From positions 1,890 to 65,889 of the forward strand of contig JBDRIE010000037.1 in assembly GCA_043816165.1 (NCBI GenBank): DNA of 64,000 bases, given 5' to 3'. The stretch is from Nitrospirota bacterium. GTDB lineage: Bacteria; Patescibacteriota; Gracilibacteria; UBA1369; LOWO2-01-FULL-3. The notes beneath the pieces are model-generated. The model was not told where the DNA came from. It did not search any database and was given only the letters and a program-made list of their open reading frames with translations. How positions within the stretch are numbered: position 1 is the stretch's first letter; the number at the start of each line of letters is the position of its first letter. The position numbers and the translations under genes were made by a program. Positions 23,457 to 52,277 of the stretch are shown in pieces.

Positions 23457-23677
23457 TACGCGAGGCTTGCCGAAGGCAAACGTAGAGTCTTTGAAATCCC
23501 AAAACAAAGAGTTGACAAAAAAGGAAGAATATGGTTAAATTCAATGCTTTGTTCCTTGAAAATTTGTACTTATTTTAGTTGATAAAAAGGTGGAGTGAAC
23601 GGAAAATTTACTCTGCTTGGTTCGTTTCCCAAATGGAGAAGCGAATCACAGAATACAAACTCACAGAGGAGGAATCT

Positions 23678-23917
23678 ATGCACTTGAGCATTATTGCGTC
23701 CGCTGACCAAGCGTCAGCCTATTCACTCGGGCATCAGTTCTTGCTGATGTTCGTGATCATCTGTTTAGCGGGGATCTTGGTTTTAGGACTTGTTGTCTAT
23801 GGGATCGTGCCCATGATCAAGAACAACCGTTTGACCTTTCGCAAGGAGTCTCACGAACGCTTGCCGCACAGACCCAACGTCCGACGCATCCCGCGTCCAC
23901 GTGACCAACGGTACTAG
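23678..23917 (+). CDS. small single-pass membrane protein with Arg/Pro-rich tail, in a GC-elevated segment
   Basis: GAGGAGG sits 5 nt before ATG 23678. TM helix FLLMFVIICLAGILVLGLVVYGIVPMI, then ...RPNVRRIPRPRDQRY. The longer TTG-initiated ORF from 23579 lacks an RBS. Confidence 0.5.
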   Translation: MHLSIIASADQASAYSLGHQFLLMFVIICLAGILVLGLVVYGIVPMIKNNRLTFRKESHERLPHRPNVRRIPRPRDQRY

Positions 23918-48321: not shown

Positions 48322-50991
48322 ATGCTTTCCGGCCTTTGGAAATATATAATCAGCAAACCAATATCATTTTTGCTAATCGTAGTCGCGGTAATACTCTTTG
48401 CTTACTACGGTTTAAGATTAATGAGATATCTGTATCGGCTACATATGGCTAAAAAATTAGTATTCCTAAGAGTCACGCTATCAAGAGAAGAATCGCCCAA
48501 AGACAAAGATAAACAGGTGGAAAAAGATTTTAGAGAAAAAATATCTATAATGTCCCAATTCTATAGAAATCTTCACGAAACCATGGAATTGAACTTATGG
48601 AATCAAATTAAAGTTTGGTTATTCAGACACAACATTTTTACATTTGAGCTTGTTGCACACCAAAAAGTTGTAGATTTCTACATCTCTACTCCGAAATACT
48701 ACAAAGGGATTATAGAAAAAGGCATAACATCCTACTACCCTGACGCCGACATAGAAGCCCTGGAGGAATACGAACCAATGCTGAAAGACAGTAAAATGAA
48801 AGGATATTACGCATATACTCAGAAAAAATACTGGTTTCCTGTCAAAACATTCAAGGTTGTTGAAAACGACCCGCTAAACAACCTCACCAACATTTTTTCC
48901 AAGCTTGAATCTGATGAAACCGCAGTAATTCAGATAGTTATTAGACCAAAAAGCGACAAATGGAGCAAAAAAGCCGAAGAAATGGGTGAAACATTTTTCA
49001 AAGGCAAAAAATCTGAAGGAATAAAAATCCCGGTAATTGGATGGGTTTTCAACGTATTTAAGGGAATTTTCCTGGGATACGAAAAGATGGAAATTCAGCC
49101 AAAACAAGGTGGGGACGGATATGTCCGAATGCTTCAATCCAAAGAAGAAGTTGCAAAGAGAATGGGTGAGAAATCGTCTCAATCCGGCTTTGACACTGTC
49201 ATAAGGCTATTATCCTCTGCCAGCACAGAAAAAAGAGCAGAAGAAATCAGCAATAACATGATTATCGGTTTAAGCCTATTTAAAGATCCATCCTCAAACT
49301 GGTTTCAAACTCGAAGAATTTTCTTTATAGATTCATTGAACGACTGGTGGTTTAATTTCAATTTTAGGAAAAGAATGATTGATTGTAGATTTTTTGGAAT
49401 CGGGGAAAAAACCGAGATCCTGGCAGAAGATGAACTTTCTTCCTTATTCCATTTCCCAAATTCAAAATACAACTACTCACCTACGATTAGATGGATGGAT
49501 TACAAGGTTCTTCCGGCCCCTACAAACGTACCTGAAGAAGGAATATTGATCGGCCATAACGTATACAGAGGAAACAAAAAAGAGATTAGATTCTTGAAAG
49601 AAGACAGATCGAGACACCACTATATAATCGGTAAATCTGGTTCCGGTAAATCCGCCCTATTATCCTTTATGGCAAGGCAAGACATAATAAACGGAGAGGG
49701 GGTATGTGTAATTGATCCGCATGGTGATTTGATCGAAGACATACTCACATACATACCAAAAGAAAGAGCAAAAGACGTAATTATATTTGATCCGGCAGAT
49801 CAGGAAAGACCTATGGGATTAAACATGCTGGACGCTAAAGATTCATCCGAGGTGGACTTAATCTCATCACAAGCAACCGAAATATTCATAAAGCTATTCG
49901 GAGATGAAATTTTTGGACCTCGAATCCAGCATTACTTTAGAAATGCTTGTTTGACCTTAATGGAAGACACTGAAGAAGGTGCAACACTGATTGATATTCC
50001 TAGAATGTTTACCGATGATGCATTTTTAAAATTTAAGGTAAAAAAGGCTACAAATCCGGTTGTTAAATCATTTTGGCAACACGAATATGCAAACACCGGA
50101 GATAGAGAAAGACAGGAAATGATCCCATATTTCAGTTCGAAATTCGGTCCATTTATTACTAATTCGATAATGAGAAATACGATTGGGCAAAGAAAATCTT
50201 CCTTTGATTTTAGAAAAGTCATGGATGAAGGAAAAATTCTATTAGTAAAGCTTTCCAAAGGTGAAATAGGGGATCTAAACACGCAACTATTAGGACTGGT
50301 TATTGTCTCAAAAATACAAATGGCCGCGATGAGTCGTGCAGACATGCCTGAAGATCAACGTAAGGACTTTTTCCTCTATGTGGATGAGTTCCAGAATTTC
50401 GCTACGGACAGCTTCTGTGCAATCTTATCCGAGGCGAGAAAGTACCATTTGAACCTAATTATGGCTCATCAATACATAAACCAGCTGGTTACATCAAAAT
50501 ACGGCACAACTTCAACACAAATCCGTGATGCAGTATTCGGTAACGTGGGTACTTTGTGCTCATTCAAGGTGGGCGCCGATGACGCCGAATATCTCGCAAA
50601 AGAATATGCCCCATTATTGACTGAGCAGGACGTAATTGGAATCTCCAACTACAAAATGTACTGCAAATTAAACATAAAAAACTCCACATCCAGGCCTTTC
50701 TCAGTTAACACAATTTGGGATACTACTGGTCAAAACCACAAAATAGCTGAAGTAATACGTGAGTACTCCAGATTGAAACATGCCAGGAAGAAAGAATTTG
50801 TGAATGAAGAAATCGTTACCAGGATTGGCATAGACATTGATGCACCACCTGTAGACATAAGCAAATTGCCAGGCCAACCAAATATGCAACAAGCTCCGGA
50901 AGGCAATGCTATGGCTAATCTTCTAGCCGCAGGCGGGGGAGAGCCTCCAATCGGCGCTGAAGAGCCTCAGCCTGAGAAGGAGGAAGAGTAA
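48322..50991 (+). CDS. TraD/VirD4/TrwB-like (FtsK-HerA superfamily) P-loop ATPase with N-terminal TM anchor, paralog 2
   Basis: Walker A GKSGSGKSA, Walker B DFFLYVDEFQN, VCVIDPHGDLIEDIL. Collinear with 29027-31510. Candidate promoter TTGTTA-17 nt-TAAAAT just upstream. Confidence 0.75.
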   Translation: MLSGLWKYIISKPISFLLIVVAVILFAYYGLRLMRYLYRLHMAKKLVFLRVTLSREESPKDKDKQVEKDFREKISIMSQFYRNLHETMELNLWNQIKVWLFRHNIFTFELVAHQKVVDFYISTPKYYKGIIEKGITSYYPDADIEALEEYEPMLKDSKMKGYYAYTQKKYWFPVKTFKVVENDPLNNLTNIFSKLESDETAVIQIVIRPKSDKWSKKAEEMGETFFKGKKSEGIKIPVIGWVFNVFKGIFLGYEKMEIQPKQGGDGYVRMLQSKEEVAKRMGEKSSQSGFDTVIRLLSSASTEKRAEEISNNMIIGLSLFKDPSSNWFQTRRIFFIDSLNDWWFNFNFRKRMIDCRFFGIGEKTEILAEDELSSLFHFPNSKYNYSPTIRWMDYKVLPAPTNVPEEGILIGHNVYRGNKKEIRFLKEDRSRHHYIIGKSGSGKSALLSFMARQDIINGEGVCVIDPHGDLIEDILTYIPKERAKDVIIFDPADQERPMGLNMLDAKDSSEVDLISSQATEIFIKLFGDEIFGPRIQHYFRNACLTLMEDTEEGATLIDIPRMFTDDAFLKFKVKKATNPVVKSFWQHEYANTGDRERQEMIPYFSSKFGPFITNSIMRNTIGQRKSSFDFRKVMDEGKILLVKLSKGEIGDLNTQLLGLVIVSKIQMAAMSRADMPEDQRKDFFLYVDEFQNFATDSFCAILSEARKYHLNLIMAHQYINQLVTSKYGTTSTQIRDAVFGNVGTLCSFKVGADDAEYLAKEYAPLLTEQDVIGISNYKMYCKLNIKNSTSRPFSVNTIWDTTGQNHKIAEVIREYSRLKHARKKEFVNEEIVTRIGIDIDAPPVDISKLPGQPNMQQAPEGNAMANLLAAGGGEPPIGAEEPQPEKEEE

Positions 50992-51189
50992 ATTTATTGA
51001 CAAAACCACGAAAACAGGGTAATTTTGCATACTTCTATTTTTATCGAAGGAATTAGATCTTTGACAATTTAAGTGGAGAGCAATCTGTCTCTTAAAATAA
51101 TGCTTGACCTCGGCACATCTGTGCGTGAGAGTCAATCGTCTAAGAGCCGGATCCTCTCTCTACTTTTAATGGGATTATTTAAAAACAAT

Positions 51190-51246
51190 TATCGGCAGAT
51201 ATTAAGGATCAAAAACCTGATTTTTGGTTCTCAACATCTGCCGATA
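51190..51246 (+). promoter_or_regulatory. 11-bp perfect inverted repeat (hairpin or protein-binding site) in the leader of the GC-rich gene
   Basis: TATCGGCAGAT (51190-51200) and ATCTGCCGATA (51236-51246), separated by 35 nt that holds a further CAAAAA/TTTTTG pairing. Confidence 0.5.
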
Positions 51247-51288
51247 CTGATTACAGTTTCGGGTATGACAGACAAAACATTCTTTAGA

Positions 51289-51315
51289 CCGGGAATAATC
51301 CCGGCAATTTTTTTT
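51289..51315 (+). terminator. Rho-independent terminator/attenuator directly upstream of the GC-rich gene's RBS
   Basis: Stem CCGGGA/TCCCGG, loop ATAA, then CAA plus T8 (51308-51315). AAGGAG and ATG 51339 follow within 25 nt. Confidence 0.65.
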
Positions 51316-51338
51316 GACCTCAGACAAGGAGAAGGAAG

Positions 51339-52277
51339 ATGCAGGCAAAAACAAAGAAAACAATCGTTTGGTGTGGAGTGGGTTCCATTCTCGCCATCGC
51401 GGTAGTCCTGGGAGTGGTCTACCGCGACGAGATCAATAATGCATTGAGCTCGTCCAGGACGGCCAAACCCAAAGACCGCGACCGCGGCCCCATCATCACC
51501 ACCAAGATGCCACCCACTTCGAAGAAGAAGGCGGCAGTAAAGAAGCCCGCCAAGGTCAAGAAGGCGGTGGTCAAGAAGGCCGCTCCCACGACCTCCACCA
51601 AGCCCGCAGACACGAAGAAGAGCGCGACGCCACCAGCCAATACCCCTCCCACGGACAAGACGGCAAGTCCCGCCCCCCTCGTCGAGCCCACCGAACCGGA
51701 AAACCGGTGCGCCGAACTGCCGTTCAGCTACGAGTTCGCCGCCAACGACCCGAATGCGAAGGATCCCTTTTTCAAGCGCTATTGGGGTCAGAACTACGGC
51801 TGTTTCTTGGCGGCAAGCCATGACCTGGGGATGCCGGGCACGATCCCTCAAGTCAGGGTCCGCCTCGAGAAGATGTCGGAAAGGCACTTCAAGCGCTACA
51901 AGGTCAAACTGGAGAAGATCATTCGGCGCGCCGTTTGTCGCACGCTCGACTACTACCTATCGACGTGCAGGGTAGTCTTGAACCCGAACCACATCAACTA
52001 CCTCTCAACAGAAGACATCAGAGTGCTACTTCAAGGGTCAGCAAGGCTGCACGACGTCACTCCTCCCGACCGATTCCGCTCCAGACGAGCAAATCCGAAG
52101 CGCGTTCGCGTCAACCCGTCACCGGGCCTCATATCTTCAACCCCGCCGACGGACACGGACAGTCCCACCGCCACCACCAAGCCCAACAAGCGGCGCATCA
52201 ATGTCGGCCTAAAAAAGCGCCAACGCATGACGCCTCGGCTGTGCGGTAGCGATCTGAGGGCTTGCCCAAAACCATAG
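51339..52277 (+). CDS. compositionally foreign (high-GC) membrane-anchored basic protein, function unknown
   Basis: SD AAGGAG/GGAAG before the ATG. TM helix IVWCGVGSILAIAVVLGVVY, K/A/P-rich linker, Cys-containing globular part, R/P-rich tail. This frame is chosen over five overlapping shadow ORFs because it alone has both an RBS and a TM helix. Confidence 0.6.
   Translation: MQAKTKKTIVWCGVGSILAIAVVLGVVYRDEINNALSSSRTAKPKDRDRGPIITTKMPPTSKKKAAVKKPAKVKKAVVKKAAPTTSTKPADTKKSATPPANTPPTDKTASPAPLVEPTEPENRCAELPFSYEFAANDPNAKDPFFKRYWGQNYGCFLAASHDLGMPGTIPQVRVRLEKMSERHFKRYKVKLEKIIRRAVCRTLDYYLSTCRVVLNPNHINYLSTEDIRVLLQGSARLHDVTPPDRFRSRRANPKRVRVNPSPGLISSTPPTDTDSPTATTKPNKRRINVGLKKRQRMTPRLCGSDLRACPKP

Follow-up and report, generated by a model that had tools for sequence, protein, structure and literature searches.

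Sequence evidence for a structured leader RNA family of Peregrinibacteria associated with GC3-rich genes for secreted and membrane proteins

The subject of this work is a structured leader RNA upstream of a GC-rich open reading frame (ORF) in a 64,000-nucleotide (nt) stretch of contig JBDRIE010000037.1 (assembly GCA_043816165.1), which is called the window here and whose own numbering is used unless another contig is named. The leader fills a gap of about 350 bases between a TraD-like gene and the ATG at 51339; the sequence was read directly from 50700 to 51700. Comparative analysis indicates that its motif is a previously undescribed RNA confined to two families of Peregrinibacteria, in the candidate phyla radiation, and that it is very probably a family of cis-acting leader RNAs. 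At this locus we regard it, with a probability of about 0.6, as the cis-acting structured 5' leader of the GC-rich gene's mRNA, recognized by a trans-acting factor and with read-through of a terminator as its output in the genus. The specific mechanism of factor binding and read-through is, on its own, offered tentatively. Cis-regulatory leader RNAs are an already known kind of element; what is new, and well supported by the sequence comparisons, is a structured leader family absent from Rfam and tied to genes that are rich in G+C at third codon positions (GC3) and encode secreted or membrane proteins. The elements of the locus, with lengths in nt, base pairs (bp) or amino acids (aa), are the following.

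50989-50991: stop codon of the TraD-like gene (889 aa), read in the sequence.
50997-51025, plus strand: promoter, with a -35 element TTGACA (50997-51002), a 17-nt spacer and a -10 element TAATTT (51020-51025), from the sequence and related loci.
51031-51053, plus strand: small 5'-proximal hairpin P0 (ACUUCU / AGGAAU, with one C·A mismatch in the window), predicted by RNAalifold on the within-genus alignment A4.
51056-51069, plus strand: conserved single-stranded 5' box, G..CUUUGACAAU, its columns nearly invariant in alignments A3 and A5.
51071-51165, plus strand: hairpin 1, a 95-nt rod, from covariance models R1 and R2 and single-sequence folds.
51190-51246, plus strand: hairpin 2, 24 bp and near-perfect in the predicted fold, with the 11-bp inverted repeat as its base.
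51190-51200 and 51236-51246, plus strand: 11-bp perfect inverted repeat, TATCGGCAGAT and ATCTGCCGATA, read in the sequence.
51289-51315, plus strand: intrinsic terminator, CCGGGA-AUAA-UCCCGG (51289-51304) and U8 (51308-51315), from the sequence and a pattern scan.
51326-51341, plus strand: Shine-Dalgarno sequence AAGGAG(AAGGAAG), with AAGGAG at 51326-51331, and the ATG at 51339, read in the sequence.
51339-52277, plus strand: GC-rich ORF for a 312-aa protein, the putative regulated gene, from codon-position GC and homologues.

The 354-nt stretch folds on the plus strand at -106.7 kcal/mol, against -74.9 +/- 5.6 kcal/mol for dinucleotide shuffles (z -5.7; 0/100 shuffles as good), and the minus strand of the leader also folds stably (z -4.9). 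Two large hairpins dominate the fold, namely the rod at 51071-51165 and the 24-bp hairpin on the 11-bp repeat. A first-pass annotation of the window, made from the letters alone, had placed the TTGACA/TAATTT promoter, the repeat, the terminator, the AAGGAG and the ATG exactly where we find them; we add that the promoter is conserved in related loci and that the repeat is the base of a longer hairpin. Its description of the region as the structured leader of a foreign-looking gene also holds, given the stability of the fold, the conserved promoter and orientation and the same-strand ORF that always follows. The rod, which is the most conserved part of the leader, was overlooked.

Conservation is concentrated in the box and in hairpin 1. 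When relatives were searched at the DNA level, the entire leader was recovered at 89% identity in one congener, while other genera gave only two short islands (51061-51102 and 51150-51178), which are the two strands of hairpin 1. The box has the family consensus G-N-Y-C-Y-UUGAMAAY, is nearly invariant and single-stranded, and lies 5-50 nt after the promoter. From base to tip, hairpin 1 consists of P1 (10 bp, GUGGAGAG/CUCUCUAC), an asymmetric internal loop, P2 (AUCUG/CGGAU), a bulged U, P3, an A-rich loop, P4-P6 and a variable tip. A consensus of 9 sequences shows P1, the internal loop, P2, the bulged U, P3 and the variable tip, and when each member is folded on its own, the minimum-energy structure is again this rod. 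What the consensus leaves as a variable tip is an ordered continuation of the rod, with the A-rich loop, P4, an internal loop, P5 with a 3' GA bulge, and P6; these three helices are described from single-sequence folds only. P4 is AAUG/CAUU, swapped elsewhere for AGUGG/CCACU, GACCAA/UUGGUC or AGCG/CGCU. The P0 hairpin is confined to the genus, where the alignment hints at it weakly.

The rod covaries. With 21 sequences, 94.5% of the alignment cells in hairpin 1 form pairs and 14 of the 21 pairs show double (compensatory) changes; with 29 sequences the values are 94.7% and 16 of 21, whereas sliding the partners as a control leaves 42-52% paired. The covariation score of the 29 sequences is 0.426 against 0.221 for shuffles, none of 500 reaching the observed value. 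Covariation in related genomes was the check that the first-pass annotation had proposed for its leader, and hairpin 1 shows such covariation. A diverged subfamily has GUAGUUAG/CUGAUUAC as P1 in place of GUAGAGAG/CUCUCUAC, and these compensatory and G-U changes mean that the structure fits the mRNA-sense strand only. The covariance-model match in the window spans 51051-51183 (R1 122 bits, R2 109 bits), and its model score is 109 bits on the plus strand against 22 bits on the minus strand. Together with the G-U pairs, this asymmetry assigns the structure to the mRNA-sense strand.

The strand asymmetry bears on a reading in which the motif acts as DNA, either as an oriT beside a coupling-protein gene or as an attC/attI-like hairpin that captures GC-rich cassettes beside tRNA genes. 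The motif does lie directly after a TrwB/TraD-like ATPase gene, and the leader, the GC-rich ORF and the neighboring gene together resemble an inserted block when compared with relatives that carry a tRNA-Met-like pair, identified by eye, at that place. In many relatives the stop codon of the TraD-like gene is directly followed by sequences that resemble this pair (L012, L014, L018, L019, L021, L024, L030 and L032), while in the clade of the window the promoter, the leader, the GC-rich ORF and a convergent Lys-rich ORF of about 440 aa stand between the TraD-like gene and the tRNAs, so the block looks like an old insertion. Like an integron attC, hairpin 1 is also imperfectly paired, has bulged bases, ends in a variable tip and lies beside foreign-looking ORFs. 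The likeness is superficial, and a DNA-level role is very improbable. The many G-U pairs fit one strand only, the promoter always precedes the motif and the ORF always follows it, and the motif also occurs far from any TraD-like gene. The sequence contains no RYYYAAC/GTTRRRY core sites (the R'/R'' sites of an attC), and the motif forms no arrays; integrase co-occurrence was not searched. Unlike an attC, the rod lies 5' of an ORF behind a promoter and is G-U-rich and strand-specific as RNA. Orthologues of the GC-rich ORFs occur in different genera and remain GC-rich, which argues against freshly captured cassettes. As for the TraD-like gene, it has weak TrwB/TraG-D_C matches only, and it is a conserved core gene, 55-89% identical across the 80 loci kept, and not the marker of a conjugative element.

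The genome of the window (1.07-Mb assembly, about 40% GC, 96% complete) belongs to a group in which relatives of the upstream gene carry the titles Candidatus Peregrinibacteria, Peribacteria or Gracilibacteria. With R1, copies of the motif were detected in 18 of the family's 56 genomes and in 13 of its 30 genera. R2, a broadened model, found it in 25 of 205 genomes of the order and in two families only; the matches in the second family score 40-45 bits yet show the full architecture. Three copies were detected by R2 in the genome itself, at 109 bits here, 77.7 bits on contig C34 (97501-97626) and a weak 35.7 bits on contig C36. A tight-pattern scan of metagenomes added 4 matches with the same layout, one of them sequence-identical to a known locus, and 2 chance matches, whereas almost all matches of a loose DNA pattern in genome contigs were chance hits in unrelated phyla.

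The anatomy of the family is, in order, promoter, box, hairpin 1, hairpin 2, a variable stretch, Shine-Dalgarno sequence and same-strand ORF. It recurs in at least 10 different gene neighborhoods; besides the place behind the TraD-like gene, these include one next to a methyltransferase-like gene and one next to a gene that was taken by eye to be uvrA. At every one of the 29 loci an ORF on the same strand follows the motif, starting 14-250 nt downstream in 28 of them and 770 nt downstream in one. A covarying, strand-specific structure that always stands between a promoter and an ORF points to a cis-acting leader, with transcription inferred from the conserved promoters. In this the motif is like the orphan leader motifs and riboswitch candidates of the Breaker/Weinberg type in Rfam, which are also covarying intergenic elements upstream of co-oriented genes, with several copies per genome and a narrow range. 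It differs from them in that it is absent from Rfam 15, in its unbranched rod followed by a second hairpin that is free of sequence conservation, and in target genes that share a GC3-rich composition and export signals in place of a metabolic pathway.

Some loci deserve separate mention. Two records titled Nitrospirota/Nitrospirae (L011 and L086; JAUVQE010000027.1 and JAACEU010000105.1) are contigs with 84-89% protein identity to the TraD-like gene, one of them with the leader, and are probably mis-binned or mislabeled. The second motif copy of the genome (C34, 96981-97626; L228) belongs to the diverged subfamily and is followed by ORFs of 42 aa and 95 aa with GC3 of 0.76 and 0.88; the 95-aa protein has an ENEGRPRRP motif that is conserved in congeners. 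About 1 kb from this copy, beside a tRNA gene, there is an Rfam group I intron (78 bits; L228 2410-2751, C34 about 98408-98749).

The gene downstream of the leader in the window is genuinely protein-coding. At the three codon positions of ORF 51339-52277 the GC content is 0.53/0.50/0.73, against about 0.44/0.32/0.38 in neighboring genes, whose GC3 ranges from 0.34 to 0.46. The 312-aa product combines a membrane anchor at the N-terminus with a linker rich in Lys and Pro and a conserved domain with six Cys residues. Besides the window's own protein only 5 homologues were found, at 45-51% identity, and neither it nor these 5 contain a Pfam domain; its AlphaFold model (mean pLDDT 50) is too poor for fold comparison. 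Across the 29 loci the downstream ORFs have a GC content of 0.49-0.75 and a median GC3 of about 0.76, while the GC3 of the genome is about 0.38 and the upstream flanks are mostly at GC 0.36-0.50. Most of the products start with a hydrophobic segment. Orthologues as low as about 47% identical retain a GC3 of 0.7-0.97, so that the composition seems to be maintained and not to be the trace of a recent transfer; no GC-rich donor lineage was found among the homologues. Apart from shadow frames, GC3-rich genes are rare in the genome (about 8).

A promoter of the form TTGACA-N17-TAnnnT is found at the equivalent place in nearly all the related loci that were read, in many genera and in other gene contexts, and a crude regular expression matches in 20 of 29 loci. 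The predicted transcription start is near 51032. A consensus promoter scan made no call at 50997-51025 because the -10 element matches only 3 of 6 positions. The conserved TTGAMA box followed by ATCTGT was considered as an internal promoter and rejected, since in the sequences read the spacing is 16-24 nt and ATCTGT is unlike a -10 element. The ORF at 51073-51405 (110 aa), which lies partly within the leader, was rejected as a gene because it is not conserved beyond the genus.

The terminator is a feature of the genus. Its G+C-rich stem is followed by a U-tract (CCGGGAAUAAUCCCGG and CAAUUUUUUUU) and is kept in 5 of 6 genus sequences, with changes confined to the loop; the sixth has a weaker GC stem and UUUU in its place. 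The RNAalifold consensus of the genus predicts base pairing between the U-tract and the purine run at the Shine-Dalgarno site. From the U-tract to the ATG there are only 23 nt, too short for a second promoter, so that expression of the ORF in the genus would require read-through of the terminator. In the whole family, 5 of 29 leaders have a stem with a U-tract between motif and ORF; one of these is an artefact inside hairpin 2, which leaves about 4 of 29. The variable stretch that follows hairpin 2 in the family often has small extra hairpins. The first-pass annotation had seen in a terminator between promoter and ribosome-binding site the layout of a riboswitch or attenuator, which thus proves to be peculiar to the genus, and had offered a separate RNA of about 300 nt as the alternative. 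This second suggestion corresponds to an independent trans-acting small RNA of about 285 nt, running from the promoter at 50997 to the terminator at 51315, with the downstream gene expressed separately. In the genus the promoter and the terminator do bracket such a unit, and its fold is very stable. As the main role of the motif it is quite improbable, since there is no room for another promoter before the ATG, most copies outside the genus have no terminator, and every copy is co-oriented with an ORF that starts soon after it, in at least 10 unrelated contexts; a terminated by-product of that length may nevertheless be made in the genus.

Known RNA families do not account for the leader. The Rfam 15 scan of the window at gathering thresholds returned 4 tRNAs only, a permissive scan of 50900-51450 with 4227 families gave chance-level hits only (the best, to a miRNA-precursor model, at 22 bits against a 90-bit threshold), and the leaders of 15 related loci had no match, in agreement with the first-pass annotation, which could not match the region by eye to TPP, SAM, fluoride, preQ1, 6S, SRP or tmRNA signatures. 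The bacterial small signal recognition particle (SRP) RNA model RF00169 gave nothing at E <= 1 in the genome, and a 6S RNA is encoded elsewhere in it. A diverged SRP or 6S RNA was rejected on the ground of that separate 6S gene and of hairpin 1, which has no SRP domain IV motifs and a variable tip.

These observations bear on a metabolite riboswitch, in which hairpin 1 would be the aptamer and the terminator at 51289-51315 the platform, with a ligand choosing between termination and read-through. In the genus a canonical terminator is in the right place, hairpin 1 has conserved internal loops and a bulge, and there are several copies per genome before different genes, as in many riboswitch classes. 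We consider the riboswitch unlikely all the same. A terminator in so few leaders implies that terminator-based switching is not the mechanism of the family. No conserved aptamer coupled to a conserved terminator platform was found: 75-250 nt, including the long and stable hairpin 2, separate hairpin 1 from the terminator or from the ribosome-binding site and start, and no conserved alternative pairing was found. The conservation lies mostly in the stem sequences of an unbranched rod and not in a multi-helix junction or pseudoknot. A classical metabolite riboswitch is disfavored by the unbranched rod, the long spacer and the lack of a conserved expression platform, as well as by the missing Rfam match and by downstream genes for fast-evolving secreted proteins with no metabolic theme. 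Hairpin 1 is also like Stem I of the T-box, a rod of about 90-100 nt with conserved internal loops at the 5' end of a leader of about 300 nt, with a terminator in the genus. Unlike a T-box leader, it has no Rfam T-box match, no T-box sequence or specifier loop was seen, and the targets are not aminoacyl-tRNA synthetase or amino-acid genes.

Hairpin 2 behaves differently from hairpin 1. Folding of the segment downstream of hairpin 1 gives z < -2 in 23 of 26 non-redundant leaders (median z -4.4), and in all 26 the longest unbranched hairpin of that segment measures 7-44 bp (median 24). Its sequence is not conserved across the family, while compensatory changes are found within the genus. It could be a generic double-stranded element, serving as an RNase III site or as a 5' stabilizer, a reading suggested by its size and its independence of sequence. 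A near-continuous duplex of at least about 20 bp suits RNase III; the predicted fold gives 24 bp here, and an RNase III gene is present (G000:C34:75440-75838). With about two helical turns and conservation of structure only, hairpin 2 is like the RNase III leader hairpins of T7 early mRNA, lambda N, rnc and pnp and like the 5' stabilizer of ompA. The leader differs from RNase III sites in that hairpin 1 is strongly conserved in sequence, and cleavage here is a prediction. In the Logan contigs of the best DNA run, the pieces split exactly at hairpin 2, one ending at 51200 and the next beginning at 51239; the inverted repeat probably interrupted the assembly there.

Taken together, the preferred reading of the leader runs as follows. 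After initiation, the box and hairpin 1 would form a sequence-specific recognition module for a trans-acting factor; conservation of both in sequence, and of hairpin 1 in structure as well, points to recognition by a specific partner. The factor, more likely a protein than a metabolite, would set the amount of full-length translatable mRNA, and hairpin 2 would act as an RNase III site or 5' stabilizer. In the genus the controlled step would be read-through at 51289-51315, downstream of the one promoter that can be seen and ahead of the start codon, and transcripts that terminate there would leave a by-product of about 285 nt. The leaders would then mark a small, co-regulated set of compositionally deviant genes for envelope and secreted proteins.

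Several results weigh against this reading. The covariation figures come from model-fitted alignments of related sequences, and 38 of the 56 family genomes have no detectable copy. Since most leaders have no terminator, the step at which the output is set cannot be the same in every lineage. The box does not pair consistently better with the Shine-Dalgarno region than shuffled boxes do, the mean over 22 leaders being -7.2 against -6.0 kcal/mol. Three metatranscriptomes from the source study contained nothing from the locus, the organism being present at only about 6x in the DNA run. No candidate for the trans-acting factor was identified: a nearby protein with sigma-region-4 and HARE-HTH domains, examined as the reader of the TTGACA-like box, is found in 56 of 56 family genomes and does not track the motif, and the genome has a single NusG-domain gene, with no RfaH/LoaP-like paralogue, at 96% completeness. 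Neither was a Rho RNA-binding domain found in the genome; one NusG and no Rho remove explanations of the RfaH/LoaP type and anti-Rho explanations.

The lack of a specialized NusG paralogue would in turn call for a mechanism carried by RNA alone, that is, processive antitermination or stabilization of the HK022 put or Bacillus EAR type, in which the folded leader would itself act on RNA polymerase, or would protect the transcript from decay at its 5' end, and would constitutively allow the transcripts of atypical, slowly translated GC-rich genes to be completed with no regulator. As in put and EAR, two stem-loops follow closely behind a strong promoter, and in the genus the sole route to the ORF crosses a strong terminator that has to be read through; hairpins near the predicted 5' end also resemble 5' stabilizers. 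Such a mechanism is possible for the genus. For the motif as a whole it is unlikely, about on a par with the riboswitch. There is no likeness to put or EAR in sequence or structure (no Rfam match), most leaders have no downstream terminator to overcome, and the effect on RNA polymerase is, in this case, a prediction. In a genome where no Rho was found, foreign genes that are translated poorly would not need the protection that they usually require.

Candidate-phyla-radiation bacteria have tiny genomes, few recognizable regulators and very few known regulatory RNAs, and to our knowledge almost nothing has been learned of their gene regulation. The motif offers a way into the control of surface and secreted proteins in bacteria that are likely symbiotic, and into the reasons why a class of genes stays GC-rich in an AT-rich genome; its covariance model can be used to annotate such genes in metagenomes. 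A wider and more speculative idea, which we think rather doubtful, is that the leader serves as the address tag of an expression system peculiar to the Peregrinibacteria lineage, with a small regulon of secreted and envelope proteins with GC3 of 0.7-0.95 in genomes of about 40% GC. If so, the composition would be maintained by selection or by a biased process and not result from recent transfer. Every gene of the set would depend for its expression on a near-consensus promoter together with this leader or with a related one that carries the UUGAAAA box. The entire set would be switched at once by a factor that recognizes the box and hairpin 1, contact with a host cell being one conceivable trigger, and the deviant codon usage would contribute to regulation by way of mRNA stability or of translation limited by tRNA supply.

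Outside the window, contig C34 (78900-85700) contains a 6.7-kb cluster of GC3-rich genes (GC3 0.70-0.80). This cluster (79-86 kb) encodes lipoproteins and secreted proteins with many Cys-rich repeats of the type CGNGxLDxGExCDDGN, which presumably resemble repeats of Myxococcus. Each of its genes has a strong promoter and a structured leader of 300-400 nt, as does a GC3-rich gene on contig C24, and two of the cluster leaders are mutually paralogous, with CUUGAAAAC in a hairpin loop and then a long rod starting with UCUGU. A UUGAAAA element occurs in all these leaders, against a genome-wide background of 0.41 per kb per strand for this heptamer; the link among the leaders is only suggestive.

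The window itself has a second unit of promoter and leader at 23512-23685, which R2 does not detect. The promoter, TTGACA-18-TAAATT, is at 23512, and the box, GTTCCTTGAAAATTTG, at 23551-23566 matches, at 14/14 positions, the 5' box that the motif has in another genus. It is followed by hairpins (z -3.2), a strong Shine-Dalgarno sequence and a GC-elevated ORF for a small membrane protein. The minimum-energy fold of this leader (23546-23685) pairs the box with the Shine-Dalgarno sequence, which is suggestive there and not general across the leaders.

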